Part shown: one piece after another, positions 14,312 through 49,453 of the stretch
Numbering within the stretch: position 1 is the stretch's first letter
How the letters are laid out: each line of letters opens with the position of its first letter
NCBI GenBank assembly: GCA_000434175.1
Contig: HF999800.1
Location: forward strand, 60,947 to 116,462
Reading direction: 5' to 3'
DNA from: Mycoplasma sp. CAG:611
GTDB taxonomy: Bacteria > Bacillota_I > Bacilli_A > RF39 > UBA660
DNA length: 55,516 nt
Position numbers and translations under genes: made by a program
Notes under the pieces: generated by a model
Told to the model about the DNA's origin: nothing
Database searches by the model: none
What the model saw: only the letters and a program-made list of their open reading frames with translations

Positions 14312-15841
14312 TTATTTTTCTATTTCTATTCTTTTAAATAGTACTTCAATTTGACCTAACTTATGATTATTTTCTAAAGCACCAAATTCATTTAATGTAT
14401 CATATGTATTTAAATTAGTATTTAATTGTTTAAATATTTTTTCAGTTGTCGTAGGCATAAATGGTGTTAAAAGTACTGATGAAATTCTTATTGATTCAAG
14501 TAAATTATATAAAACAGTTTGTAATCTTTCTAGTTTTTCTTCTTTAGCAAGTACCCAAGGAGTTGTATCGTCTATATATTTATTACATTCTCTTAAAAAG
14601 TTAAATATTTCTTCTAAAGCATCACTTATATATAATTTTTCCATATTTTTATCTACAACTGATTTTAAATTAGAAGCTTTATTTATAAGTTCTGTATCTA
14701 TTTCTTCATTTACTTTAGAATTAGAAATAACACCATCAAAATATTTATTAGTCATAGCTATTGTTCGATTAAGTAAATTACCTAATGTATTAGCTAAATC
14801 AGCATTTGTTCGAGCAATTAATGCTTCCTCACTAAAGTTACCATCACTTCCAAATGAAACTTCTCTTAAAGCATAATATCTAACTGCATCTACTCCATAT
14901 TTATCAATATATTCTCTTGGATCTTTATAATTTCCTAAAGATTTACTTATTTTTCCACCATCTATTTTTAACCAACCATGTCCGAATACTTGTTTTGGAA
15001 GTGGTAAATCAAGTGCCATCAATAAAGCAGGCCAAATAATTGCATGAAATCTTACTATTTCTTTTCCTACTAAATGTAAATCTGCTGGCCAATATTTTTT
15101 AAATAAACTATCATCATCACTTAAATAACCAAGAGCAGTTATATAATTAGTTAAAGCATCTATCCAAACATAAATAACATGTTTTGGATTAAAAGAAACT
15201 GGTATTCCCCAACTAAAAGTTGTTCTTGATACACATAAATCTTCAAGTCCTGGTTTTAAAAAGTTATTAATCATTTCATTTTTTCTTGATTCTGGTTTTA
15301 TAAACTCAGGATTAGTTTTATAAAGTTCTTCAATTCTTTTTTGATATTTAGATAATCTAAAAAAATAACTTTCTTCTTCTACTAAAGAAACTTCTCTTCC
15401 ACAATCAGGGCACTTTCCATCAACAAGTTGTGTTTCAGTCCAAAATGATTCACATGGCGTACAGTAAAGTCCTTTATATTTATCTAAATATATATCCCCT
15501 TGTTCGTATAATTTATCAAATATTTTTTGAACTGCTTTTTCATGATATTCATCAGTTGTTCTAATAAACTTATCATAACTTATCCCTAAACTTTTCCATA
15601 AATCTTTAGCATTTTCTACAATTTCATCCACATATTCTTTAGGAGTTACACCTTTTTCCTTAGCTTTATTTTCTATTTTTTGACCGTGTTCATCTGTTCC
15701 AGTTAAAAAGAATACATCTTTTTCCTTTAATCTTTGATACCTTGCAATTGAATCTGCAATAATTGTTGTATAACAATGTCCAATATGAAAATTAGCACTT
15801 GGATAATATATTGGTGTTGTTATATAATATTTTTCTTTCAT
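14312..15841 (-). CDS. metG: methionine--tRNA ligase (short form, no C-terminal tRNA-binding domain)
   Basis: HIGH motif (NFHIGH), KISKS (KMSKS-type motif), and a CPDCG zinc knuckle. The start is moved to MKEKYYITTP (15841, GGAAGG RBS). The 20-codon extension in the ORF track lies in the T-box leader. Confidence 0.95.
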   Translation of the reverse strand: MKEKYYITTPIYYPSANFHIGHCYTTIIADSIARYQRLKEKDVFFLTGTDEHGQKIENKAKEKGVTPKEYVDEIVENAKDLWKSLGISYDKFIRTTDEYHEKAVQKIFDKLYEQGDIYLDKYKGLYCTPCESFWTETQLVDGKCPDCGREVSLVEEESYFFRLSKYQKRIEELYKTNPEFIKPESRKNEMINNFLKPGLEDLCVSRTTFSWGIPVSFNPKHVIYVWIDALTNYITALGYLSDDDSLFKKYWPADLHLVGKEIVRFHAIIWPALLMALDLPLPKQVFGHGWLKIDGGKISKSLGNYKDPREYIDKYGVDAVRYYALREVSFGSDGNFSEEALIARTNADLANTLGNLLNRTIAMTNKYFDGVISNSKVNEEIDTELINKASNLKSVVDKNMEKLYISDALEEIFNFLRECNKYIDDTTPWVLAKEEKLERLQTVLYNLLESIRISSVLLTPFMPTTTEKIFKQLNTNLNTYDTLNEFGALENNHKLGQIEVLFKRIEIEK

Positions 15842-15859
15842 AAATACCTTCCTTTCAAA

Positions 15860-16078
15860 AAAAATATTACAAACATAGAAACGAATTTTTCGTGGTACCA
15901 TTCTACTTTGTAATATTAATTACCTTTTTCTCTTAACGCGAGTAACGAATTTATTTACATATCAATAAATCAGTTTTGGAAACCATATTCAATTATATTT
16001 ATTACTTATTTTCACCAAACATAAGCTCTCTTTAAATTAAATAATAATCTACTCTTTTCCTCACAACATTTAATTAAT
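15860..16078 (-). promoter_or_regulatory. T-box leader (riboswitch), probable Met (AUG) specifier
   Basis: On the minus strand, in order: AGAGAGC...GGTGAAA, GAATATGG (AUG at 15984-15986), a GCGTTA F-box-like element, and AATGGTACCACG matching the T-box core GGTGGTACCGCG. A short hairpin and T8 then precede the metG RBS. Confidence 0.7.
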
Positions 16079-23417: not shown

Positions 23418-25055
23418 TTATTGTATTTCAACAAAATCTTGACCAAAAAGGTCTAATGCATCTTTTATTGTTTCTTTTGTTTCTATTTCTATTTTATCAT
23501 ATTTTTCTTGTTCTTTTGGTTTTTCAATTAATATTTCTTCTTTATAAGTATATTTTATTCCATTTTTTTTATCCAAAATAAACTTATTTTTTATTGTTTC
23601 CCATTCATCATCTAAAACAAAGGAAACTTTATAATTTTTATTAACAATTAAATAAATTAATGATTCAATTTTTGACACGTTTAATAAAGCATTTTCTAAT
23701 ACAGAATCATATTTAAATGATATAATTACATCTTTTTCTCCAACCACACGAACATTTCCATCAATCAAAAAAGATACAACACTACCAAATTCTTTATTAT
23801 ATAAATAGTCAGATAAGTTTATCCAACATATTTTTAAATCTTCAAGTAGACTTTTATTAGCAAGTGCTAACGCATTATTTATTCTAATTTTATTTAATTC
23901 GAATGTTTGTTCGTTTAGACTATTTGCTTCTTTTATTTCTGTTTTTTCAATATTATTATTTTTTTCTTTTTTTATTTCAATAGGAAATTCCTTTTCTGAA
24001 AAAGTATTTTTCTCTTCAGAAATTTTATTATTTTCTAGCAAAGCTTCAATTTTCAAAAATGAAACCTCTAACAATACTTTTTGATAACTACTATTTTTCA
24101 TATTATTAACTGTATCATTTAAAATATCTATTATTTCAAAAATATCACTTTTGTTTATTTCATATTGTTTATTACTTATTAACATATTTTTTAAATATTC
24201 AATCAACTCAGTCGTAAATAAAATAAAATTTTTTCCTTTTTTTCCTAAATAATCAATTTTATCCAATGCTTCTTTAGTATCGTTTTTAACAAGATAATTA
24301 ATTATATCAGACAATTCCTCTTCTTTTACAATTCCTTTTATTTCATAAAAATCATTTGTTGTAATATTAGTAGAACAACAAGCTAATTTATCAAGTAAAT
24401 TAATTGCATCTCTAAGTCCTCCATCAGAGTATTTTGCAATTAAATTTAAAACTTCTTCCTCTACTTTTATTTTTTCTCTTTCTACGATAAATTTCAATTT
24501 ATTAACAATATCATCTTCACTTATTTTTTCAAAATTAAAGCATTGACATCTTGATATTATAGTTGCAGGAACTTTATATAATTCGGTTGTAGCTAAGATA
24601 AATACAACATGTTGTGGTGGTTCTTCAAGGGTTTTCAATAAAGCGTTAAATGCTCCGATCGAAAGCATATGAACTTCATCTATAATATATACTTTATATT
24701 TTGAAATAGAAGGCATTAATGTAACCTTATCCCTTATTTCTCTTATCTCATCAACACCGTTATTTGAAGCAGCATCCATTTCAATAATATCTGGATGATT
24801 TTTTTCATTAAATGCTATACAACTCGGACATTTTTCACAAGGTTTATCATCTATTGGATTTTCACAATTAAGTAATTTAGCAATTAACTTTGCTATAGTC
24901 GTTTTACCAGTACCTCTAGGACCAGAAAATAAATATGCATGTGATGTCATATGTCTTTCAATAGTATTTTTCAATATTTTTGTTACATATTGTTGGCCTA
25001 CAACTTCTTCAAATGTTTGTGGCCTATATTTTCTATATAATGCAAGATAACTCAT
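23418..25055 (-). CDS. dnaX: DNA polymerase III subunit gamma/tau
   Basis: LYRKYRPQTF start, GPRGTGKTT Walker A, zinc module CEKCPSC, DEVHML, and SRCQ. Confidence 0.95.
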   Translation of the reverse strand: MSYLALYRKYRPQTFEEVVGQQYVTKILKNTIERHMTSHAYLFSGPRGTGKTTIAKLIAKLLNCENPIDDKPCEKCPSCIAFNEKNHPDIIEMDAASNNGVDEIREIRDKVTLMPSISKYKVYIIDEVHMLSIGAFNALLKTLEEPPQHVVFILATTELYKVPATIISRCQCFNFEKISEDDIVNKLKFIVEREKIKVEEEVLNLIAKYSDGGLRDAINLLDKLACCSTNITTNDFYEIKGIVKEEELSDIINYLVKNDTKEALDKIDYLGKKGKNFILFTTELIEYLKNMLISNKQYEINKSDIFEIIDILNDTVNNMKNSSYQKVLLEVSFLKIEALLENNKISEEKNTFSEKEFPIEIKKEKNNNIEKTEIKEANSLNEQTFELNKIRINNALALANKSLLEDLKICWINLSDYLYNKEFGSVVSFLIDGNVRVVGEKDVIISFKYDSVLENALLNVSKIESLIYLIVNKNYKVSFVLDDEWETIKNKFILDKKNGIKYTYKEEILIEKPKEQEKYDKIEIETKETIKDALDLFGQDFVEIQ

Positions 25056-25144
25056 TTTGCACCCCCCTTAACTAACAATAAAGTATAAATAAATTATATC
25101 ATAAAATTTATTTATTTAACTATATTTTTAATAATTTTTATATA

Positions 25145-25160
25145 TGTTTCACGTGAAACA
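25145..25160. promoter_or_regulatory. parS: parS (ParB/Spo0J binding site)
   Basis: TGTTTCACGTGAAACA, a perfect 16-bp palindrome matching the Bacillus parS consensus TGTTNCACGTGAAACA. The palindrome extends to 24 bp (25141-25164). Confidence 0.85.
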
Positions 25161-25238
25161 TATAATTATTTAAATAAATGCTATTTTTTATCTATAAGTT
25201 ATGAAAATGTTCTATTTATTACAATAATCTTACCCAAT

Positions 25239-25254
25239 TATTTCCCGGGAAATA
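25239..25254. promoter_or_regulatory. NBS (Noc binding site)
   Basis: TATTTCCCGGGAAATA contains the B. subtilis NBS core ATTTCCCGGGAAAT exactly. The palindrome extends to 22 bp (25236-25257). Confidence 0.8.
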
Positions 25255-25298
25255 ATTTGTAACAAAAAATTAACAAAACTGTTTTAGAAAAAAAGTAA

Positions 25299-25314
25299 TG
25301 TTCCACGTGGAACA
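25299..25314. promoter_or_regulatory. parS: parS (ParB/Spo0J binding site)
   Basis: TGTTCCACGTGGAACA, a perfect palindrome built from the other allowed parS half-site. Confidence 0.8.
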
Positions 25315-25402
25315 TATATTATTATTTAAGTGTTATTTAATAACATATTATGTTTTATTATTATAAATACAATGCTATATATAATAATATAATATATTTC
25401 AA

Positions 25403-25418
25403 TGTTTCACGTGAAACA
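25403..25418. promoter_or_regulatory. parS: parS (ParB/Spo0J binding site)
   Basis: TGTTTCACGTGAAACA. The palindrome extends to 28 bp (25397-25424). Confidence 0.85.
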
Positions 25419-25497
25419 TTGAAAATAATAAAAAAACATATATTTTTCATTCATAAGTTATGAAAATGTTCTATTTATTACAATAATCTTACCCAAT

Positions 25498-25513
25498 TAT
25501 TTCCCGGGAAATA
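25498..25513. promoter_or_regulatory. NBS (Noc binding site)
   Basis: TATTTCCCGGGAAATA, a perfect match. Confidence 0.8.
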
Positions 25514-25556
25514 ATTTGTAACAAAAAATTAACAAAACTGTTTTAGAAAAAAGTAA

Positions 25557-25572
25557 TGTTCCACGTGGAACA
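25557..25572. promoter_or_regulatory. parS: parS (ParB/Spo0J binding site), also the terminator hairpin of tadA
   Basis: TGTTCCACGTGGAACA within the 24-bp palindrome GTAATGTTCCACGTGGAACATTAC (25553-25576). T6 follows on the minus strand. Confidence 0.8.
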
Positions 25573-25989
25573 TTACTTTCTCTTATCTTTAAAAAAAGCG
25601 CTTAAAGTTTCATTATATCCATATATGTCAAGCAATTTATTAATTCTAATATTTTTTTTATTTGCAGTTTCTACATCTTTATAATTAGATTTCAATAAAT
25701 AATATACGTTTTTTATTCGAGATTCGCCTATTGCAGATAAACACATATTGCATGGCTCTAGTGTTACATATAAATCACATTCATTTAATCTCCAAGATTT
25801 TAGTTTTTTACAAGCTTTAATAATTGCTAAAATTTCCGCATGATATATAGACACTTTTTTTGAATTCTTTTTATTATATGCCTTTGAAATAATTTTATTA
25901 TTCATAACAATAACTGCTCCCACAGGGATATTTCCTTTGTTTTGTGCTATTTTAGCTTGTTTAATTGCTTCAATCATATATTTATCCAT
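25573..25989 (-). CDS. tadA: tRNA-specific adenosine deaminase
   Basis: CMP/dCMP deaminase zinc motifs HAEILAI and PCNMC. The start is moved to MDKYMIEAIK (25989, GGAGG RBS). The longer ORF-track start would overlap the SRP RNA. Confidence 0.9.
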   Translation of the reverse strand: MDKYMIEAIKQAKIAQNKGNIPVGAVIVMNNKIISKAYNKKNSKKVSIYHAEILAIIKACKKLKSWRLNECDLYVTLEPCNMCLSAIGESRIKNVYYLLKSNYKDVETANKKNIRINKLLDIYGYNETLSAFFKDKRK

Positions 25990-26007
25990 ATAACCTCCAA
26001 TAAAAAA

Positions 26008-26079
26008 GTGCACACATATAGGGATTATTAAGGCTGCTACTTTCCAGTCCTGACCTGGTTCTAATATATATGTTGCACG
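26008..26079 (-). ncRNA. ffs: signal recognition particle RNA, short 4.5S-like form
   Basis: The minus strand reads GTGCAACATATA...ACCAGGTCAGGACTGGAAAGTAGCAGCC...TATATGTGTGCAC. This matches the domain IV consensus CAGGUCAGGUCCGGAAGGAAGCAGCC with a GGAA tetraloop. The 5' and 3' ends pair, T6 follows, and a promoter precedes it. Confidence 0.8.
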
Positions 26080-26085
26080 ATTTAA

Positions 26086-26114
26086 ATATTATATTAAATC
26101 AAATTAAAAGTCAA
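26086..26114 (-). promoter_or_regulatory. sigmaA promoter of ffs
   Basis: On the minus strand: TTGACT, then TAATAT at a 17-nt spacing (or TATAAT at a 15-nt spacing). It ends about 7 nt before the SRP RNA 5' end. Confidence 0.55.
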
Positions 26115-26126
26115 TAAAATTATGAA

Positions 26127-26142
26127 TGTTCCACGTGAAACA
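26127..26142. promoter_or_regulatory. parS: parS (ParB/Spo0J binding site)
   Basis: TGTTCCACGTGAAACA, identical to the B. subtilis consensus site. Confidence 0.85.
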
Positions 26143-26222
26143 TTGAAAATGAATTTTAAATATGTATTTTTTTATTCATAAGTTAGAAAAATGTTCAGTT
26201 TAATACAATAATCTTACCCAAT

Positions 26223-26238
26223 TATTTCCCGGGAAATA
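26223..26238. promoter_or_regulatory. NBS (Noc binding site)
   Basis: TATTTCCCGGGAAATA, a perfect match. Confidence 0.8.
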
Positions 26239-26281
26239 ATTTGTAACAAAAAATTAACAAAATTATTTTATAAAAAAGTAA

Positions 26282-26297
26282 TGTTCCACGTGGAACA
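26282..26297. promoter_or_regulatory. parS: parS (ParB/Spo0J binding site)
   Basis: TGTTCCACGTGGAACA within GTAATGTTCCACGTGGAACATTAC (26278-26301). T6 follows on the minus strand. Confidence 0.8.
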
Positions 26298-26314
26298 TTA
26301 CAATATTAAATATA

Positions 26315-26345
26315 AAAAGAGTGTTTTTTTAATAAACACTCTTTT
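26315..26345 (-). terminator. intrinsic terminator after gyrA
   Basis: 12-bp stem AAAAGAGTGTTT/AAACACTCTTTT with a 7-nt loop, directly after the gyrA stop. Confidence 0.65.
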
Positions 26346-26346
26346 A

Positions 26347-28863
26347 TTATTCTTCTATGATTTCTTCTTCTGGTTCTTCTTTTTCTGTTACTGTTACATT
26401 AGTTACTATTTGATTATCTTTTAATGATATTAATCTTACACCTTGTGTATTACGTTTTAATGTGGATATTTTATTTACATCTAACCTTATAACTATACCA
26501 CTATTAGTTGTGATTATTATATCTTCATCACCAACAACCGATTTAAATGCAACGATTAAACCATTTTTATCGGTAATATTAAGAGCTTTTACTCCTTTTC
26601 CTCCACGATGAGTTAATCTATATTCATCAGTTTCAGTCTTTTTACCATATCCTTTTTCTGTTATAACTAATATTAATTTTGAACTATCTGCTACTTCTGC
26701 TCCAATTACATATGAATTATCAAGTTCAATGCCTTTTACACCACTTGCTGTTCTACCCATCAATCTAACTTCTTTTTCATTAAATCTAACCATTCTACCA
26801 TTATTAGCAGCAATTATTATTTCATTTGTACCATCAGTTAAATTAACATTTATTAATTCATCATCTTCTTTTAATGTGATAGCTATTTTACCATTATTTC
26901 TTATAGACTCAAATTCTTTTATATTAGTACGTTTTACTAAACCATATTTTGTTACAAATACTAAATTCTTTTCATCATTAACTTCTTTTGGATCTATTGA
27001 AATAATTGATGTTATTTTTTCTTCTTTTTCTATTGGAATTAAATTAATTATTGGTAACCCTTTTGATTGTCTACTTCCAAGTGGAATTTCATATCCTCTT
27101 ACTCTATAAACTTTTCCATAATTACTAAAGAACAATATATCATCATGAGTTGATGATGTAATTAACTTATTAACATTATCTTCTTCATTTGTTGTCATTC
27201 CTTTTATTCCTACACCACCACGATTTTGTGTTCTATATGTATTTACGGCCAAACGTTTGATATATCCTTTTTCTGTTAAAGATATCATTATGTTTTCAAC
27301 AGGAATTAACGATTCATCTTCAATATAATCAATTGCAGTCATATCAATTGATGTTCTTCTTTCATCTGCATATTTATCTTTTATCTCAAGCATTTCAGTT
27401 TTTATTATATTATCTATCTTTTCACGACTAGCTAAAATTGCTTTTAATTCTTCGATTAATTTTAAAGTTTCAGCTAATTCTTGTTCTATTTTATCTCTTT
27501 CTAAACCCGTTAAACGACGAAGTTTTAATTCTAGTATAGCATCAACTTGAATATCACTAAAACCAAATCTTTTAATTAATTCTTCTTTTGCAATAACATC
27601 TGTTTCTGATTCACGGATTATTTTAATTACATCATCTAAATGGTCTAACGCTATTTTATAGCCTTCTAAAATATGTACTCTTGCTTCTGCTTTATCAAGA
27701 TCAAATTTCGTTCTTCTTATTATAACTATTCTTTGATGATCTATATATTTTTCAATTATATCTTTAAGTGGTAATGTTCTTGGTGTTCCATCATCAATTA
27801 CTAAAAAATTAATTCCATAACTGATTTGAAAATTAGTATGTTTATATAAATTATTAAGTACAACTTGTGGGTTAGCATCTTTTTTTAAAGTAATTGTTAT
27901 TTTTACCCCATCTTTTAAATCAGTGTGATAATCAGATATTCCATCAATTATCTTATCCCTAACAAGTTCTCCTACTTTGTTTTTTAATTCCAAAGTATTA
28001 ACGCCATATGGTACTTCCGTTATAACAATATTATTGTGATTTCCATGTTCTTCAATAGTTGCTTTACTTCTAATTGTTATAGACCCTCTACCAGTATCAT
28101 AAGCCTTTTTAATACCAGAGTTTCCTAAAATAATACCCCCTGTTGGAAAATCAGGTCCTTTAACGTATTGCATAAGACCTAAAGTATCTATTTCAGGATT
28201 ATCAATATAAGCAACACAACCATCAATTACTTCACCTAAATTATGTGGTGGGATATTTGTTGCCATACCTACTGCGATTCCCATTGATCCATTTACTAAA
28301 ACATTTGGAAACCTTGATGGAAGTACTTTTGGCTCTTTACTTGTAACGTCAAAGTTATCATCCATATCAACTGTATCTTTTTTGATATCTCTTAAAAGTT
28401 CTAGAGATATTTTAGATAATCTTGCTTCAGTATAACGATATGCTGCTGCACCATCGCCTTCAATATTACCAAAATTACCATGCCCATCAACCAACATATA
28501 TCTTTGGTTAAAATCTTGCGCAAGTCTTACCATTGCTTCATATATTGAACTATCACCATGTGGATGATAATGCCCCATAACATAACCTACAGTAGTAGCA
28601 GATTTTTTATGCGGTTTATCTGGAGTATTTCCTTCTTCAAACATACTCCATAAAATTCTTCGGTGAACAGGTTTTAAACCATCTCTTAAATCGGGTATTG
28701 CACGTGAAGCTATAACACTCATTGAATAATCTAAAAATGATGTTTTTACCTCATTTACAATATCATTTATATTATGACTATCTCGTTCATGAAATTTTCC
28801 ACCATAATCATCTTTTTCTTTATTATTTATTTCATTTTCAGTTGTTTTTTCTTCATTTTCCAT
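26347..28863 (-). CDS. gyrA: DNA gyrase subunit A
   Basis: AIPDLRDGLKPVHRR, the HPHGDSSIYEAMVRLAQ QRDR region, catalytic YRYTEARL, and C-terminal beta-pinwheel repeats. Confidence 0.98.
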   Translation of the reverse strand: MENEEKTTENEINNKEKDDYGGKFHERDSHNINDIVNEVKTSFLDYSMSVIASRAIPDLRDGLKPVHRRILWSMFEEGNTPDKPHKKSATTVGYVMGHYHPHGDSSIYEAMVRLAQDFNQRYMLVDGHGNFGNIEGDGAAAYRYTEARLSKISLELLRDIKKDTVDMDDNFDVTSKEPKVLPSRFPNVLVNGSMGIAVGMATNIPPHNLGEVIDGCVAYIDNPEIDTLGLMQYVKGPDFPTGGIILGNSGIKKAYDTGRGSITIRSKATIEEHGNHNNIVITEVPYGVNTLELKNKVGELVRDKIIDGISDYHTDLKDGVKITITLKKDANPQVVLNNLYKHTNFQISYGINFLVIDDGTPRTLPLKDIIEKYIDHQRIVIIRRTKFDLDKAEARVHILEGYKIALDHLDDVIKIIRESETDVIAKEELIKRFGFSDIQVDAILELKLRRLTGLERDKIEQELAETLKLIEELKAILASREKIDNIIKTEMLEIKDKYADERRTSIDMTAIDYIEDESLIPVENIMISLTEKGYIKRLAVNTYRTQNRGGVGIKGMTTNEEDNVNKLITSSTHDDILFFSNYGKVYRVRGYEIPLGSRQSKGLPIINLIPIEKEEKITSIISIDPKEVNDEKNLVFVTKYGLVKRTNIKEFESIRNNGKIAITLKEDDELINVNLTDGTNEIIIAANNGRMVRFNEKEVRLMGRTASGVKGIELDNSYVIGAEVADSSKLILVITEKGYGKKTETDEYRLTHRGGKGVKALNITDKNGLIVAFKSVVGDEDIIITTNSGIVIRLDVNKISTLKRNTQGVRLISLKDNQIVTNVTVTEKEEPEEEIIEE

Positions 28864-33806: not shown

Positions 33807-35180
33807 TTATTTTAATTCTTGTTCTATATGAATAATTGCTTCTTTTAATTCCATGTTACTTTTTAATGAAGTTTCTATTTTATTACAAGAATGCATTACA
33901 GTAGCGTGATTTTTTCCACCAAATTCTATTCCTATTCTTTCAAAAGATTCATTAGTTAATTTACGACATAAATACATTGCTACTTGTCTTGGAATGGCTA
34001 TATTTGGTGGCCTTTTATTAGATTTTATATCTTCATAAGATATTTTATAAAAATTTGCTACACTTTTTTGTATTCTTCTTATATTATTTTGATCTGTACC
34101 ACTTGTTTTTTTAGTAAATTCTTTTAATGCTTCCATTGCAAATTCTAAAGTTGGATTATTAACACCCATAATTACTGAATAAGCAATAAGTCTTGTAATT
34201 GAACCTTCAAGTTGCCTTACATCGTTTCCTACATTTGAAGCAATAAAATTAATAACATCATCATTTATTTTTAACTTTTCTCCATTTAATTTTTTTCTTA
34301 TAATAGCTACTTTTAATTCAAATTCAGGTGGTGCAATATCAACTTGTAAACCCCAACAAAATCTAGTACGAAGTCTATCTTCAAGAAATTTTAAATCATC
34401 TGGTGATCTATCGGATGATACAATTATTTGCTTAGAATCGTTATGCAAATTATTAAATGTATGGAAAAACTCTTGTTGTGATGCTGTTGCTCCCCCAAGA
34501 AATTGAATATCATCTATTATTAATACATCAATATCACGATATTTACTCTTAAAAAATTCCATATAATCTAAATTATTATTGTTAATATTATTTTTTCTTG
34601 ATAATCCCATAAAATCTTCAAGAAATTGATCACAGGTAACATATAAGACACGTTTTTTGTGTTTTTCTTCAATATAATTACCAATTGCATGCATAAGATG
34701 AGTTTTACCAAGTCCACTGTTACCATATATAAATAAAGGATTATACATCTTACCAGGATTTTCTGCTACTGCAAGAGCTGCAGCTTGTGCAAATTTATTT
34801 GATTCGCCTACAACAAATGTATCAAAAGTATAATTTTTATTTAAATTAGAATTAATTGCTTTTTTAGGTTTATATTTATCAACATCATCTTTAGTTTCAG
34901 TTTTTTCTTTTTCTTTATCAAGTATTTCATTAAGATTTTCCTTTAAAATAAAGATAATATCATTTATTTTAAAACTAGAATTGTTATTAAAATTATCTAT
35001 TATTATTTCTTTATAATTTTGTTCAATATGCGTTTTGTAAAGTAAATATGGTACGCATAATCTCAATTTATCATCTTGAATATCAATAAATTCAATATTA
35101 CTAAACCATGTATTAAAAGGAAGAGGATCTATAATATTTTTAATACTTAATAATGTTTTATTCCATATACTATCATTCAT
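33807..35180 (-). CDS. dnaA: chromosomal replication initiator protein DnaA
   Basis: AAA+ motifs GNSGLGKTHL and LIIDDIQFL, sensor motifs, and a domain IV HTH (PRQVAMYL...GGKNHATVMH). Confidence 0.97.
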   Translation of the reverse strand: MNDSIWNKTLLSIKNIIDPLPFNTWFSNIEFIDIQDDKLRLCVPYLLYKTHIEQNYKEIIIDNFNNNSSFKINDIIFILKENLNEILDKEKEKTETKDDVDKYKPKKAINSNLNKNYTFDTFVVGESNKFAQAAALAVAENPGKMYNPLFIYGNSGLGKTHLMHAIGNYIEEKHKKRVLYVTCDQFLEDFMGLSRKNNINNNNLDYMEFFKSKYRDIDVLIIDDIQFLGGATASQQEFFHTFNNLHNDSKQIIVSSDRSPDDLKFLEDRLRTRFCWGLQVDIAPPEFELKVAIIRKKLNGEKLKINDDVINFIASNVGNDVRQLEGSITRLIAYSVIMGVNNPTLEFAMEALKEFTKKTSGTDQNNIRRIQKSVANFYKISYEDIKSNKRPPNIAIPRQVAMYLCRKLTNESFERIGIEFGGKNHATVMHSCNKIETSLKSNMELKEAIIHIEQELK

Positions 35181-35618
35181 ATTATAACCTCCTTCCCCAT
35201 AAGATTTTTTAAGTCAATTTAATTGTAATACATTATTAAAAAAAATAAAATACCCAAACAGAAATTAACTAACTTATTAACATAGTTTTCAACATATAAA
35301 ACCCTTCGTCTATATATAATAAATGACTTTTTAACAAATTTCAAGAAAAAAGTTATTATTTTAATTAACATTATGTTATAAATAAATTGTTAATAACTGT
35401 TAACAATGGTTAATAAATATTAAAATATATATTATATAAGGATAAAATAACTGCAGTTATTAACTAAAATATTGTTAATTTTTAAATATTAATAATTTTT
35501 TATTATAAATTAACTACAGATATTAACTAAAAAAGTTAAAAACTAATTGCTCCGATGAATTGATTATTTATTTAATCCATGATATATTAAAAATATAAAA
35601 ATAATGAGGTAAAGAATT
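35181..35618. other. oriC: oriC, dnaA-upstream box cluster and AT-rich region at the strand-switch point
   Basis: The coding strand switches here. Four exact TTATTAAC 8-mers (35274-35281 plus strand, 35389-35396 minus, 35409-35416 minus, 35457-35464 plus) and at least 6 one-mismatch variants are present, along with the palindrome ATAACTGCAGTTAT (35445-35460). An almost pure A/T stretch spans 35417-35445. Confidence 0.6.
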
Positions 35619-44868: not shown

Positions 44869-45723
44869 TTATTTATTTTCTATCTTTAATACATCATCTA
44901 TATATTGGTAATTTAAAGCATTAGAATTTGTAACAATACTTTCTTGTAATTCGTTTTCTAAATTTTTTCTTGTATTTAATGCAATATTTCCACCACATCT
45001 TGCCACCTCAAGATTTTGTTTTAAACCAATAGGATTTTTCTTTTTAGTTATTTCTCTAGTTGCAATTTCTCCTAAATCTGAAAGGACGACTTCTATATCA
45101 CTCATGTTATCCCTTAATGATTCTTTCCTAAGACCTTTAAAAGCTTTATATTCACTAGCAGTCATACCAGACCACTTTTTATATATTTCATTTGTAAGAA
45201 TAGCATACTCACTTTCTTCAGTTACACCATGTTCATTCCAAACATCAGTAAGTTTTTTTCTATCTTGAATACTTTTAATTCTTCTTATTATCCATTCTTC
45301 TGGATATCCTTTTTTTCTATAAGTATCAATAGCTCTTTGTACAGTAAGTGAAGGATCAAATACTTCATTAATTCTTTCACTTCCAAGTTTAGCTAACCAC
45401 TGTTTAATTGGTTCAGCATTTTTTGATGGGATTGATTCAATTATTCTAAACATTCCCTCAATATCACATACATCAGTTATACGATATTTTCCATCTTGAG
45501 CTTTTAGTTTCAATTGGTGACAATTTGTCACCGTTTGATTTCCTTGTTGTTTTAATCTTTGTTTTAATTTATTCCAATATTTTCTTGGATTTTCACTTCC
45601 AGATAAAACTCCAACAACATCCACTACACTAACATAATATTTTTCTTGTTCTTTATCCCATACTGTTCTTATTGTTTCATTATTAAATAACTTATTTATA
45701 AAATGCATCTTGCTTTCTTCCAT
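44869..45723 (-). CDS. Bro-N domain / DinD (DNA-damage-inducible protein D)-like protein
   Basis: N-terminal IRTVWDKEQEKYYVSVVDVVGVLS fits a Bro-N fold. The C-terminal half (KGLRKESLRDNMSDIEVVLSDLGEIATRE...) resembles my memory of E. coli DinD (RKGLKKNQKILDHMGSTELAANLF). Confidence 0.55.
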   Translation of the reverse strand: MEESKMHFINKLFNNETIRTVWDKEQEKYYVSVVDVVGVLSGSENPRKYWNKLKQRLKQQGNQTVTNCHQLKLKAQDGKYRITDVCDIEGMFRIIESIPSKNAEPIKQWLAKLGSERINEVFDPSLTVQRAIDTYRKKGYPEEWIIRRIKSIQDRKKLTDVWNEHGVTEESEYAILTNEIYKKWSGMTASEYKAFKGLRKESLRDNMSDIEVVLSDLGEIATREITKKKNPIGLKQNLEVARCGGNIALNTRKNLENELQESIVTNSNALNYQYIDDVLKIENK

Positions 45724-45746
45724 AAAATCTCCAAACTTATCTTATT

Positions 45747-46082
45747 TTAATTATTGTCTTTCGCATCTAGATATATTTTCATAATCGAAGCAAATAAATC
45801 TTCTTTTTGAATATTTGTTAACTTTTTACTTTCAAATAATAACTTTGCTTTTTCAATTAAATCCATACAGCTATCAGTAGTTTCTGCCATTATAAAATAA
45901 GACATTTCAACATTAAAAAACTCACATATTTTTTCTAATTGATTTAAACTAAAATTTCTTTTTCCTTTTTCTAAATTAGAAATTTGTGCCCTACTTAAAT
46001 TTAATAAATTTGCTAAATCTTCTTGTTTTAAATTTCTTCTTTTTCTTAATAATTTTACTTTTTCACCTAAATTTTGTATCAT
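45747..46082 (-). CDS. XRE-family helix-turn-helix transcriptional regulator
   Basis: N-terminal Cro/C1 HTH (LRKRRNLKQEDLANLLNLSRAQISNLEKGKR). It lies immediately upstream of the Bro-N/DinD-like gene on the same strand. Confidence 0.85.
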   Translation of the reverse strand: MIQNLGEKVKLLRKRRNLKQEDLANLLNLSRAQISNLEKGKRNFSLNQLEKICEFFNVEMSYFIMAETTDSCMDLIEKAKLLFESKKLTNIQKEDLFASIMKIYLDAKDNN

Positions 46083-46259: not shown

Positions 46260-47660
46260 ATGAACCTAGATAAAGAAGTATTTGAACTTTCAATGGATGA
46301 TATTTTACCAAATAGATTTCAACCAAGGGAAGTATTTGATGAACAAGCTTTAAATGAACTTGCTTTATCAATTAGAGAACATGGAGTAATTCAACCAATA
46401 ATAGTAAGAAAAATAGGGGATAAATATGAAATAATCGCAGGAGAAAGAAGATTTCGTGCTAGTCAAATAGCAGGTAAAAAAACTATTCCAGCATTAGTAA
46501 GAAATATAGATGATAAAGAAAGTGCTAAAATTGCTTTATTAGAAAATTTACAAAGGAAAAATTTAACTTCAATTGAAGAAGCAAGAACATATGATACAAT
46601 TTTAAAACTTGATAATATGACGCAAGAAGAACTTGCTAATAATCTTGGAAAATCACAATCTGCTGTTGCTAATAAAATAAGATTATTAAACTTAGATGAA
46701 TCAGTTCAAGATGCTTTATTAAAAGAACAAATATCAGAAAGACATGCCAGAAGTTTATTAAATGTTCCTGATAAAGCAAAGCAAAAAGAACTTTTAAATA
46801 AAGTTATAATGAATCGTATGACTGTTAAACAATTAGATGATGAAATAGCACTTTTAACAGGTAACAAATCGTCATCAGATGCTGAAGGAGGTCAAAATGT
46901 GTTAAAAGATGATTCAATATTTACATTACCTAATTTAGATAATTTAAATAACAAAGAAGAAAAACCTACGAATAATGATAATAATATAAAAAATCAAGTT
47001 AGTAATGAAATTGTTTCAAATAGCGAAGAAAAATTACCAGAATTTAATATACCTTATATTAAACCTGAAACTAGCACTTCAAATAAAATTGAAGAACCTG
47101 AAGTTAAACCTCTTGATGATAGTTTTGTAGAAAAAAGTATTTTCTTTACTAATCCAGAACCTACTAAGAAAAATGAAGATATTTCAAATTTAACAATAGA
47201 GCAAATATTAGCAAATTATAATTTAAATAATAAAAAAGTACTTGAAAAAGAAGAAAGACCTTCCTTATTTAATTTAGAAGAATCAAAAGAAGATTTATCA
47301 TCTTTAAAATCAACAGATTATAGTAATTTAATTAATCCAGTTGTGCCTGAAGAAATAAAAGAAGAACATCTTCCTGTTTTTGATGTCCCTTCTTATTCTA
47401 AAATTGAACAAACAACAGATTATCCTACTTATAACAATAAAGAAGAATCTTTAAATAATAATCTATATAATAATACTTCAAGCCAAAATATAACAAATAA
47501 AGAAAAAACAAATAACGAAGTATATGATTTAAGGTTTGCAATAAATAATTTTAGACAAGCAGTTCAAAATACAGAAAAATTTGGGTTTAAAGTTGAAACT
47601 GAAGAGTTTGATTTTGATAATGTATATCAAATTATTATTAGAATAGATAAAAATAAATAA
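46260..47660 (+). CDS. noc: Noc-like ParB-family protein with long low-complexity insert
   Basis: ParB N-domain (PNRFQPR, GERRFRA CTP motif) and an HTH with Noc-type residues (GKSQSAVANKIRLL...SERHARSLL). The C-terminal end RFAINNFRQAVQNTEKFGFKVETEEFDFDNVYQIIIRIDK parallels the B. subtilis Noc C-terminus. Its position between rsmG and soj matches Bacillus. Confidence 0.75.
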   Translation: MNLDKEVFELSMDDILPNRFQPREVFDEQALNELALSIREHGVIQPIIVRKIGDKYEIIAGERRFRASQIAGKKTIPALVRNIDDKESAKIALLENLQRKNLTSIEEARTYDTILKLDNMTQEELANNLGKSQSAVANKIRLLNLDESVQDALLKEQISERHARSLLNVPDKAKQKELLNKVIMNRMTVKQLDDEIALLTGNKSSSDAEGGQNVLKDDSIFTLPNLDNLNNKEEKPTNNDNNIKNQVSNEIVSNSEEKLPEFNIPYIKPETSTSNKIEEPEVKPLDDSFVEKSIFFTNPEPTKKNEDISNLTIEQILANYNLNNKKVLEKEERPSLFNLEESKEDLSSLKSTDYSNLINPVVPEEIKEEHLPVFDVPSYSKIEQTTDYPTYNNKEESLNNNLYNNTSSQNITNKEKTNNEVYDLRFAINNFRQAVQNTEKFGFKVETEEFDFDNVYQIIIRIDKNK

Positions 47661-47796: not shown

Positions 47797-48588
47797 ATGG
47801 GAAAAGTAATTTCATTAATTAATCAAAAAGGTGGCGTAGGAAAAACAACAACAAGTATAAATTTGTCAGCTTCCCTTGCGCTTTTAGATAAAAAAGTATT
47901 AATGGTGGATTTAGATCCACAATGTAACGCAACAACAGGAATAGGTATTAATAAAGGGGATATAGAAAAAAGTGTTTACAATGTTTTAAATGGAACTTGT
48001 AAAATAGAAGAAGCTATTTTAAAAACAAGATATAAAAATTTATATGTTTTACCAGCTAACCTAAATTTAGCAGGAATAGATATAGAAATAAGTGAAAAAA
48101 GTAGGGTTGATAATACATTTTTAAAACAAGAACAATTAAAAAATAGTATTGATAGAATAAAAGATTCTTTTGATTATATAATAATTGATTGTCCTCCTGC
48201 ACTTGGAATAATAACAACGAATGCTTTAACAGCATCGGATTCTGTTATAATCCCAGTGCAATGTGAATATTTTGCACTTGAAGGAATAACACAACTTTTA
48301 AAAGCAGTTAAGTTTACTCAAATGAATCTTAATTCTAATTTAAAAATAGAGGGAGTTTTATTAACAATGTTTGATGCAAGGTTAAATTTAGGACTTGAAG
48401 TAGTTGAAGAAATAAGAAAATATTTTCAAGACAAAGTATATAATACCATAATACCAAGACTTGTTAGATTAACTGAAGCACCATCGCATGGAAAACCAAT
48501 TATTGCATATGATCCAAAATCTCGTGGGTCTGAAGCATATTTAAATTTAGCTAAAGAGGTGATAGAAAAAAATGAAAGAGGAGAATAA
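47797..48588 (+). CDS. soj: chromosome partitioning ATPase ParA/Soj
   Basis: Deviant Walker A NQKGGVGKTTT, with DLDPQ and IDCPP motifs. Confidence 0.96.
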   Translation: MGKVISLINQKGGVGKTTTSINLSASLALLDKKVLMVDLDPQCNATTGIGINKGDIEKSVYNVLNGTCKIEEAILKTRYKNLYVLPANLNLAGIDIEISEKSRVDNTFLKQEQLKNSIDRIKDSFDYIIIDCPPALGIITTNALTASDSVIIPVQCEYFALEGITQLLKAVKFTQMNLNSNLKIEGVLLTMFDARLNLGLEVVEEIRKYFQDKVYNTIIPRLVRLTEAPSHGKPIIAYDPKSRGSEAYLNLAKEVIEKNERGE

Positions 48589-49453
48589 AAGAAGAGCTCT
48601 AGGAAGGGGCTTAGAAGAATTGTTTTCAATTGAAGATATCAACTATGGTAATTTAGAAGAAAAAATAATGGAAACCGTACATGAAGAAGAAATTCAAGAA
48701 CTTCCATTAAATGAATTAAGGGTTAACCCTTATCAACCTAGAAAGACATTTAACGAAGAAAGTTTAAATGAACTTGCAGAAAGTATTAAAGAGCATGGTG
48801 TTTTCCAACCAATTATTGTTAAAAAAAGTATTAAAGGTTATGAAATAGTCGCAGGAGAAAGAAGATTTCGCGCTTCTAAATTAGCAGGAAAAGAAACAAT
48901 ACCTGCTATTGTAAGAAATTTTACTGATGAAGAAATGATGGAGATTGCGGTATTAGAAAACTTACAAAGAGAAAATTTAAATGCTGTAGATGAAGCAAAT
49001 GCGTACAAAACTCTTATGGAAAATCTACATTTGACACAAGATCAAGTTTCAAAAAGAGTTAATAAAAGTAGAAGTCATATAACAAATTTACTTGGAATAC
49101 TTGCTTTACCTGAAGATGTTTTAACTTTAGTAAAAGAAAATAAATTAACTATGGGTCATGCAAGATGTTTATCAAAACTTAGTGATATTGAAAAAATTAA
49201 TGAATTAACTAAAAAAGTACTTGAAGAAAATTTAAGTGTAAGAGAACTTGAGGCTTTAGCAAGTGGTGAAGAAATAGAAAGAAAAAACAAAATAGTTAAA
49301 AAACCTAAATCTAATGAATACACATCACTTGAAAAAGAATTAACAGAATATTATGGCACAAAAGTTAAGATTGCTAACAAAAAATTAATTATTAGTTTTG
49401 AAAATAACCAAGATTTAAATAGAATATTAGAAATGATTAACTATAATAAATAA
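48572..49453 (+). CDS. spo0J: chromosome partitioning protein ParB/Spo0J
   Basis: RALGRGL start, NPYQPRK, the GERRFRA CTP motif, and an HTH with ParB-type residues (NKSRSHITNLLGILALP...TMGHARCL). Confidence 0.93.
   Translation: MKEENKRRALGRGLEELFSIEDINYGNLEEKIMETVHEEEIQELPLNELRVNPYQPRKTFNEESLNELAESIKEHGVFQPIIVKKSIKGYEIVAGERRFRASKLAGKETIPAIVRNFTDEEMMEIAVLENLQRENLNAVDEANAYKTLMENLHLTQDQVSKRVNKSRSHITNLLGILALPEDVLTLVKENKLTMGHARCLSKLSDIEKINELTKKVLEENLSVRELEALASGEEIERKNKIVKKPKSNEYTSLEKELTEYYGTKVKIANKKLIISFENNQDLNRILEMINYNK

Follow-up and report, generated by a model that had tools for sequence, protein, structure and literature searches.

The origin-proximal stretch of Mycoplasma sp. CAG:611 DNA analyzed here (contig HF999800.1; 55,516 nucleotides, hereafter the window, 55.5 kb) carries, between gyrA and dnaX, six perfect parS sites that are interleaved with three perfect Noc-binding sites (NBSs) within 1.15 kb. 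The reading of these 16-mers as interleaved loading sites for ParB and for a paralogue of Noc, both of which are encoded in the window, is supported, as every computational test agrees with it. We consider it likely, from sequence and homology, that the 1.15-kb region serves as a compound centromere on which a mixed ParB/Noc complex is assembled.

Interleaved parS and NBS in the window

A scan of the whole window with the parS pattern TGTTNCACGTGNAACA returned exact matches at 25145, 25299, 25403, 25557, 26127, and 26282, and no further match was found in the window even when up to two mismatches were allowed. The chance expectation is 0.05 sites, and none of 100 shuffled sequences reached six. 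The NBS 16-mer TATTTCCCGGGAAATA (NBS consensus, ATTTCCCGGGAAAT) occurs exactly at 25239, 25498, and 26223, and beyond these three the window contains no match even with up to three mismatches. An earlier note on this DNA had claimed six perfect parS sites and three perfect NBSs containing the Bacillus subtilis site; the exact scan bears out both counts. Both 16-mers are identical to oligonucleotides that have been used experimentally for parS and NBS (PMC8429893; PMC7383237), the NBS one being that of PMC8429893.

The sites are ordered as three parS-NBS-parS cassettes, in which the start-to-start distances from parS to NBS and from NBS to parS are 94 and 60 bp, 95 and 59 bp, and 96 and 59 bp, respectively. 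Cassettes 1 and 2 are separated by a gap of 104 bp, and cassettes 2 and 3 by a gap of 570 bp. The inner ~120 bp of cassettes 1 and 2, from ATAAGTTATG through the right-hand parS, are the same except for one A in an A-run, exactly as had been noted earlier, and cassette 3 departs from them in its spacers only. The sites and cassettes, to which no strand is assigned, are as follows, all nine sites being exact matches.

25145 to 25160: parS 1, TGTTTCACGTGAAACA, left of cassette 1
25239 to 25254: NBS 1, TATTTCCCGGGAAATA, which with its flanks forms a 22-bp palindrome (inverted repeat)
25299 to 25314: parS 2, TGTTCCACGTGGAACA, right of cassette 1
25403 to 25418: parS 3, left of cassette 2
25498 to 25513: NBS 2
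25557 to 25572: parS 4, right of cassette 2, abutting the tadA stop codon
26127 to 26142: parS 5, TGTTCCACGTGAAACA, left of cassette 3, a short way upstream of the promoter-like element TTGACT-17-TAATAT of ffs
26223 to 26238: NBS 3
26282 to 26297: parS 6, right of cassette 3, after the gyrA terminator
25145 to 25314: cassette 1 (parS-NBS-parS), in the tadA-dnaX gap
25403 to 25572: cassette 2, in tandem with cassette 1 at a distance of 258-259 bp
26127 to 26297: cassette 3, in the gyrA-ffs gap

Ten contigs with identical TadA represent the species of the window, and in these the cassette (parS-59-NBS-94/97-parS) is invariant in structure but not in number. Depending on the strain, the gyrA-ffs gap contains a single cassette, a single cassette with an additional parS, or a pair of cassettes. 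In the tadA-dnaX gap there are either two cassettes or one; where there is one, the tandem copy that is absent cannot be identified. The parS-NBS-parS cassette is the unit that recombination duplicates and deletes; the recent duplication proposed earlier gains support from this strain-variable cassette number at identical TadA.

Conservation and variation in related genomes

When the species-representative genomes of GTDB were scanned for ATTTCCCGGGAAAT-N(31-61)-TGTTNCACGTGNAACA, NBS-parS pairs were found at at least 120 loci in approximately 117 species genomes. Nearly all of the matching genomes, among the matches listed, are metagenome-assembled genomes (MAGs) of 22-33% GC that are labelled as uncultured Bacilli, Erysipelotrichaceae, Tenericutes, Mycoplasma sp., Clostridium sp. 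CAG:417, or Candidatus Onthousia, and that we take to be RF39-like Bacilli with reduced genomes. Among the same listed matches, each genome, including two complete chromosomes, has one locus or two contig ends of one locus, and tblastn with the window proteins placed essentially all of them at a single locus, gyrB-gyrA-(sites)-tadA-(sites)-dnaX-ybaB-recR, with a GyrA identity to the window of 59-83%. The same arrangement, which the earlier note had proposed to seek in related genomes, is therefore present at the syntenic locus in at least 117 species, with differing spacings, and in no sequence examined is the unit scattered regardless of its distance from the origin. We also considered a generic interspersed repeat of the REP or MITE type (repetitive extragenic palindrome or miniature inverted-repeat transposable element), and rejected it: the window holds no further copies, and, among the matches listed, nearly all sites lie in one syntenic position.

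Site counts were made over 131 related loci, amounting to roughly 1 Mb of origin-proximal sequence. These contain 516 perfect parS sites, 97% of them inside the gyrA-tadA-dnaX gaps, and 350 perfect NBSs, of which approximately 89% lie inside the same gaps and a minority are isolated. For comparison, 78 unrelated metagenome contigs carrying tadA had no perfect NBS and three lone parS sites; this background control was provided by a TadA-anchored metagenome scan in which two of 80 loci were syntenic and most belonged to distant organisms with tadA elsewhere.

In many species, the two sites form strict alternating tandem arrays, such as one of 11 units of 68/58 bp (locus L040). Other alternating arrays have units of 57/70 bp (L093), 48/35 bp (L014), 27/49 bp (L085), 57/58 bp (L074), and 64/60 bp (L109), and a further architecture of 73/22 bp is also seen among the species. 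The spacers of different species are unrelated in both length and sequence. Within cleanly aligned arrays, the spacer columns differ by approximately 4-19%, the parS cores by approximately 0%, and the NBSs by 0-6%; these values come from inspection locus by locus, a pooled count being distorted by 1-nt register shifts and by non-homologous segments of equal length. Since the spacers diverge while both palindromes stay intact, both sites are under selection, and since the architectures vary by species, what selection keeps is the co-location of the two sites and not a fixed geometry. The conservation extends slightly beyond the 16-mers, with A at position -1 in 98% of parS half-sites and AAA at positions -4 to -2 of the NBS in 82-92%, and the sites of this lineage are effectively palindromes of 18 bp (parS) and 24 bp (NBS).

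Across the 131 loci, the centre-to-centre distance between adjacent NBS and parS ranges from 18 to more than 100 bp; thus, no single geometry is required, and the spacing of 94-96 and 59-60 bp that the earlier note had described holds for all three window copies and fails as a rule for the lineage. The distances peak near 24, 36, 48, 57-58, and 68-70 bp, with troughs between. After the 468 NBS-parS spacers had been collapsed to ~225 sequence families, 226 in one run and 225 in another, the Rayleigh statistic had its maximum at exactly 10.5 bp (R 0.24, p ~2e-6); the offset of 5 bp corresponds to half-integer helical turns. Adjacent parS-parS pairs gave no 10.5-bp signal (R 0.04). We regard this heterotypic phasing as suggestive. 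In the window, the 59-60-bp spacing is near one of the peaks, and 94-96 bp corresponds to approximately nine full turns.

Three further observations concern the distribution of the sites. A few NBS-parS pairs were also seen outside the 22-33% GC group, in a genome labelled 'Clostridia bacterium' (L008, GC 0.41) and in an Erysipelotrichaceae MAG (L100, GC 0.45), so that the pairing may not be confined to the main clade. A perfect NBS occurs within the dnaX coding sequence, ~1.05 kb from its start, at L207:6263, L208:6160, L213:6038, L214:6052, and ~18 further loci. This position matches residues 340-354 of the window DnaX (in some cases 368-388), a variable low-complexity linker in which the site is read I-S-R-E-I; in the same place, a near-parS sequence (V-P-R-E-T) occurs in one species, and two parS sites occur in L149, a genome with parS only. 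The constraint on the dnaX-internal site seems to act on the DNA, because the peptide is not conserved and the window DnaX does not carry the site. Lastly, arrays often stop at the end of a tile or contig, and from some genomes there are two contigs, each ending in an array (L021/L055, L038/L070, and L093/L098). Short-read assemblies seem to break at the centromere because of the repeats, and the array lengths in MAGs are therefore lower bounds.

ParB, the Noc paralogue, and the gene context

The two proteins to which the sites correspond are both encoded on the plus strand.

46260 to 47660, plus strand: Noc paralogue, 466 aa, with a CTP-binding N-terminal domain, an NBS-type helix-turn-helix (HTH; Q173, K179, N184, R201), and a conserved C-terminal domain
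48572 to 49453, plus strand: spo0J/parB, 293 aa, with R173, L179, A184, and G201 and an N-terminal ParA-interacting LGRGL motif

The window ParB matches TIGR00180 with 205 bits, and its gene adjoins parA. The best family of the paralogue is the NCBIfam Noc model TIGR04285, to which it scores 301.3 bits, just under the cutoff of 315, versus 232.5 bits for the window's own ParB, and it is closer to solved Noc structures (7ng0/7nfu, E 5e-61) than to Spo0J (6sdk, 5e-50). The CTP-binding motifs GERRxR and ENLQR are present in both proteins. Four specificity positions decide between parS and NBS, and lysine at position 179 alone is sufficient or permissive for the choice of NBS (PMC7383237, Jalal et al.); in the alignment, these positions read Q/K/N/R in the Noc paralogue and R/L/A/G in ParB. 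The claim that both cognate proteins are encoded in this window therefore stands, the specificity residues of ParB and the Noc paralogue matching the two site types.

The N-terminus of the Noc paralogue is short. Its residue 5 aligns with residue 26 of 7nfu (Geobacillus Noc) and residue 28 of 7ol9 (B. subtilis Noc), and neither the membrane-targeting amphipathic helix alpha-1 nor helix alpha-2 has a counterpart in it. The open reading frame (ORF) cannot be extended upstream, as no other start codon intervenes between the preceding stop and the one used. In the AlphaFold2 model, the fold begins with a strand at residues 7-11; the confidently modelled N-terminal and DNA-binding domains span residues 1-202, and the conserved C-terminal domain spans residues 422-466. 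Between them lies a variable, low-complexity linker of ~220 residues (203-421) that is predicted to be disordered (predicted local distance difference test, pLDDT, 30-47). Among the best 120 homologues of this Noc subfamily, 118 have the short N-terminus without the helix and 116 have the QKNR combination; their lengths range from 303 to 580 aa owing to the linker, in which no short motif is conserved across the family. The N-terminal amphipathic helix is a requirement for nucleoid occlusion (PMC4331003, PMC8429893). Because the window paralogue does not have it, membrane tethering of the B. subtilis type is unlikely here, as is the canonical membrane-tether mechanism in this Noc subfamily as a whole, and the suggestion in the earlier note that the unit acts as a membrane tether is weakened accordingly.

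The remaining genes and the inferred origin are located as follows; the noc paralogue lies ~20 kb from the site array.

23418 to 25055, minus strand: dnaX (NCBIfam NF004046)
25573 to 26013, minus strand: tadA, a 146-aa ORF for which gene callers take a 138-aa start at 25989
25995 to 26087, minus strand: ffs, small signal recognition particle (SRP) RNA (Rfam RF00169)
26347 to 28863, minus strand: gyrA, with its own terminator at 26315-26345
35181 to 35618, no strand: inferred oriC region, the intergenic DNA upstream of dnaA, from gene order and the sign change of the GC skew
47797 to 48588, plus strand: soj/parA

After gyrA come gyrB, recF, dnaN, and dnaA (33807-35180), and the GC skew switches sign at ~35-36 kb. 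The place of dnaA and the skew switch put the cassette cluster ~9-10 kb from the inferred origin, and the dnaA coordinates and GC skew confirm the distance from dnaA given by the earlier note. A window scan for DnaA boxes (TTATCCACA, up to one mismatch) found 21 against 18 expected and no cluster, a result that is uninformative in DNA of 23% GC; the origin position therefore rests on gene order and GC skew. Cassettes had also been said to occupy every intergenic gap of gyrA-ffs-tadA-dnaX: all gaps are indeed filled, and they number two and not three, because ffs and tadA abut.

In its longest form, which begins with GTG at 26013, the tadA ORF shares 19 nt with ffs; the ATG at 25989 (138 aa) chosen by the gene callers of public assemblies abolishes this overlap. 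The gene order in the window runs from rsmG through a Bro-N/HTH pair to the noc paralogue, soj, and spo0J. The pair, inserted at 44869-46082 on the minus strand between rsmG and the noc paralogue, encodes a Bro-N protein of 284 aa and an Xre/HTH_3 repressor-like protein of 111 aa; it is a phage-like antirepressor/repressor pair within an otherwise conserved origin gene order and was found in all six contigs of the window's species that were looked at. Upstream of a 529-aa ORF at 14312-15901, the minus strand carries a T-box leader at 15874-16073 (Rfam RF00230, 95.5 bits). The Rfam search of the window matched ffs and this T-box only, and the cassettes had no match.

Function of the interleaved sites and comparison with known systems

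By homology, the six parS sites would load CTP-bound clamps of ParB, and the three NBSs between them would load CTP clamps of the Noc paralogue. From their sites, clamps of both types would pass onto shared DNA near the origin and spread along it, so that a mixed nucleoprotein complex would form ~9-10 kb from oriC, and a larger number of units would provide a greater loading capacity. With the sites 18-100 bp apart, the two clamp populations would share DNA and would therefore have to meet. Since a range of 8-10 kb has been reported for Noc spreading (PMC5540599), the Noc paralogue would also reach oriC. We believe that the helix-less, long-linker Noc probably acts as a second centromere-bound clamp and not as a tether of the B. 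subtilis type, and its candidate roles include division control anchored at the centromere, control of replication, a barrier to spreading, and linker-driven condensation or compaction; in B. subtilis, Spo0J and Noc are reported to be functionally linked in the timing of the Z ring (PMC6852036). More doubtful, and offered as speculation, is the specific proposal that Noc here has become a second centromere protein, with the helix-less paralogue and ParB co-assembling on the interleaved sites, possibly phased on opposite helical faces, into a hetero-clamp partition complex that serves a non-tether function such as coupling to division or replication or the formation of linker condensates. The Noc paralogue could also be a living intermediate of the transition from ParB to Noc, with its specificity switched and its action still at the centromere.

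Several observations weigh against a compound centromere. The large set of loci was selected for having an NBS-parS pair; in a site-independent sample of relatives picked by TadA homology, 12 of which were syntenic, NBSs lie among parS sites in eight, and co-location is not universal, as two have parS only, one has neither site, and one has its NBS 1.7-2.4 kb from the parS array. Heterotypic adjacencies in these 12 relatives number 11, compared with 10.4 expected by label shuffling. The corresponding excess in the pair-selected set (482 versus 357 +/- 11) stems from that selection and, in part, from tandem duplication of one unit. Under a looser merging of spacer families, the helical phasing disappears (n 63, p 0.27), and inherited spacer lengths may explain it. 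Furthermore, the NBS counts cover origin-proximal DNA, which leaves room for many more Noc sites elsewhere and for a conventional role of the paralogue. Its position 184 is N instead of K, although in PMC7383237 K179 alone was sufficient. Because of the split among the 12 relatives, we regard the parS cluster as the conserved centromere of the clade and the co-location of NBSs as frequent but losable.

The main rival explanation is coincidental co-location, in which ordinary, chromosome-wide and origin-biased Noc sites for conventional nucleoid occlusion have settled in the scarce origin-proximal intergenic gaps of these compact genomes and been multiplied by duplication of a unit that happened to include both kinds of site, the two proteins having no interplay. 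It would account for the isolated NBSs outside the arrays (23 inside dnaX and others 1-7 kb away), the four of 12 site-independent relatives without interleaving, the chance-level adjacency in that sample, small as it is at n = 12, and the wide variation in spacing. We nevertheless judge it unlikely, as ~89% of the perfect NBSs in ~1 Mb of origin-proximal sequence at 131 related loci share the two gaps occupied by parS, and the window has no NBS elsewhere in its 55 kb. Many unrelated unit architectures each keep both sites, which are preserved in the arrays as the spacers drift, and the 10.5-bp signal is found for heterotypic neighbours only; the paralogue, moreover, is without the helix that conventional nucleoid occlusion requires (PMC8429893). 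A boundary or regulatory function is less probable still. Here, the clamps would restrict each other: Noc clamps loaded amid parS would be roadblocks that confine the spreading of ParB, or vice versa, and protect the essential genes gyrA, ffs, tadA, and dnaX. Alternatively, the Noc paralogue would modulate the initiation of replication. The short distances that would force both kinds of clamp to meet fit this explanation, as do the position of the arrays directly upstream of promoter-like elements of ffs and dnaX, the location of oriC within the range of Noc spreading, and the restraint of replication initiation by Noc in Staphylococcus aureus (PMC5540599 for both). No sequence evidence tells a boundary from cooperative co-assembly. 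With as many as 11 alternating units, the arrays resemble amplified loading capacity and not a boundary, and the 18 promoter-like matches in the region are no enrichment over the 15.5 expected after shuffling. By the same numbers, we rejected the placement of the NBS in a functional promoter spacer.

The palindromes might instead be transcription signals, either intrinsic terminators or operators of another regulator, and not loading sites. The right-hand parS, combined with flanking GTAA/TTAC and a T6 run, does form a terminator-like hairpin on the minus (coding) strand: the hairpin at parS 25557 (16 bp plus U6), directly after the tadA stop, has a free energy of -19.6 kcal/mol (z -5.5), that at parS 26282 (plus U6), after the gyrA terminator, has -13.9 kcal/mol, and parS 25299 resembles a terminator (hairpin plus U-run) weakly. 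Right-hand parS sites may thus double as intrinsic terminators for gyrA and tadA in the window's species. As an alternative to loading sites, however, this explanation is very improbable. Terminators tolerate compensatory changes, whereas parS is invariant at 59-83% GyrA identity and equals the consensus; the left-hand parS sites have no T-run, the NBS hairpin is no more stable than shuffled sequence (z -1.0), and transcription signalling would be, at best, a side function of three of the nine sites. Terminators as a general explanation of the palindromes were rejected, since across the lineage a T-run follows 17% of parS sites compared with 12% of random nearby positions.

A compound centromere loaded with both clamps would matter for several reasons. 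Of the CTP-gated DNA clamps, these two have been studied best, and in every organism studied ParB and Noc have separate sites and different jobs. The conserved co-loading sites and the anchorless Noc together suggest a function of Noc that is not yet known, and the arrangement bears on the evolution of Noc from ParB. The 175-bp cassette and the purified proteins would constitute a ready substrate for analyzing whether the clamps block each other, co-spread, or co-condense, and culturing of the organism would be unnecessary. The locus would also define the centromere of a large group of uncultured, genome-reduced gut Bacilli, and its arrays, several of which end at contig ends, would explain the frequent assembly breaks at this locus in the group.

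The pairs parS/ParB and NBS/Noc are of known kinds; their interleaved arrangement and the protein variant are new. A full-text literature search, in which subscription journals were not covered, found no natural parS/NBS interleaving and no helix-less Noc subfamily. The only work found that puts ParB/parS and Noc/NBS together is a synthetic labelling tool (PMC11109969), in which both protein-site pairs operate side by side without cross-binding; that system is engineered, and it uses separate loci in human cells.

The Noc-NBS systems of B. subtilis and S. aureus (Wu et al. 2009; Adams et al. 2015, PMC4331003; Jalal et al. 2021, PMC8429893; Pang et al. 2017, PMC5540599) share with the window the 16-bp NBS core, the ParB-family CTPase fold, Q173, K179, and R201, the C-terminal domain, and a gene that adjoins soj-spo0J. 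They differ in that their NBSs are single and dispersed over the origin-proximal half to two-thirds of the chromosome (~70 in B. subtilis and 41 loci in S. aureus), whereas here they lie between parS sites at one locus of ~1 kb and, in related species, in tandem arrays. The canonical Noc has the amphipathic helix, alpha-2, and, in B. subtilis, a linker of ~15 residues, whereas the window paralogue has neither helix and a linker of ~220. In the B. subtilis mechanism, membrane-tethered nucleoprotein complexes physically exclude the divisome.

With the clustered-parS ParABS centromeres of Caulobacter, Corynebacterium, Myxococcus, and Streptomyces (PMC7333895, PMC7022226), the window shares consensus parS sites within a few kb and ~10 kb from oriC, parA-parB nearby, and a ParB of the parS type. 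Chromosomal centromeres described to date are not known to contain a second, paralogue-specific type of site amid parS; here, NBSs are interleaved. The iterated centromeres of plasmids likewise consist of head-to-tail units that each contain a palindromic loading site and vary in copy number. The sopC centromere of the F plasmid, for example, consists of 12 tandem 43-bp repeats of iterated ParB sites. Such plasmid centromeres have one protein and one type of site, whereas the present locus is chromosomal and has two types of site for two paralogous clamps. In Caulobacter, the division regulator MipZ, a ParA-like ATPase, is anchored at the centromere by binding the ParB protein, and the placement of division thereby follows the segregating origins. 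MipZ-ParB is an analogy only in how it works, because in the present system a paralogue of ParB would load onto DNA sites of its own beside parS.

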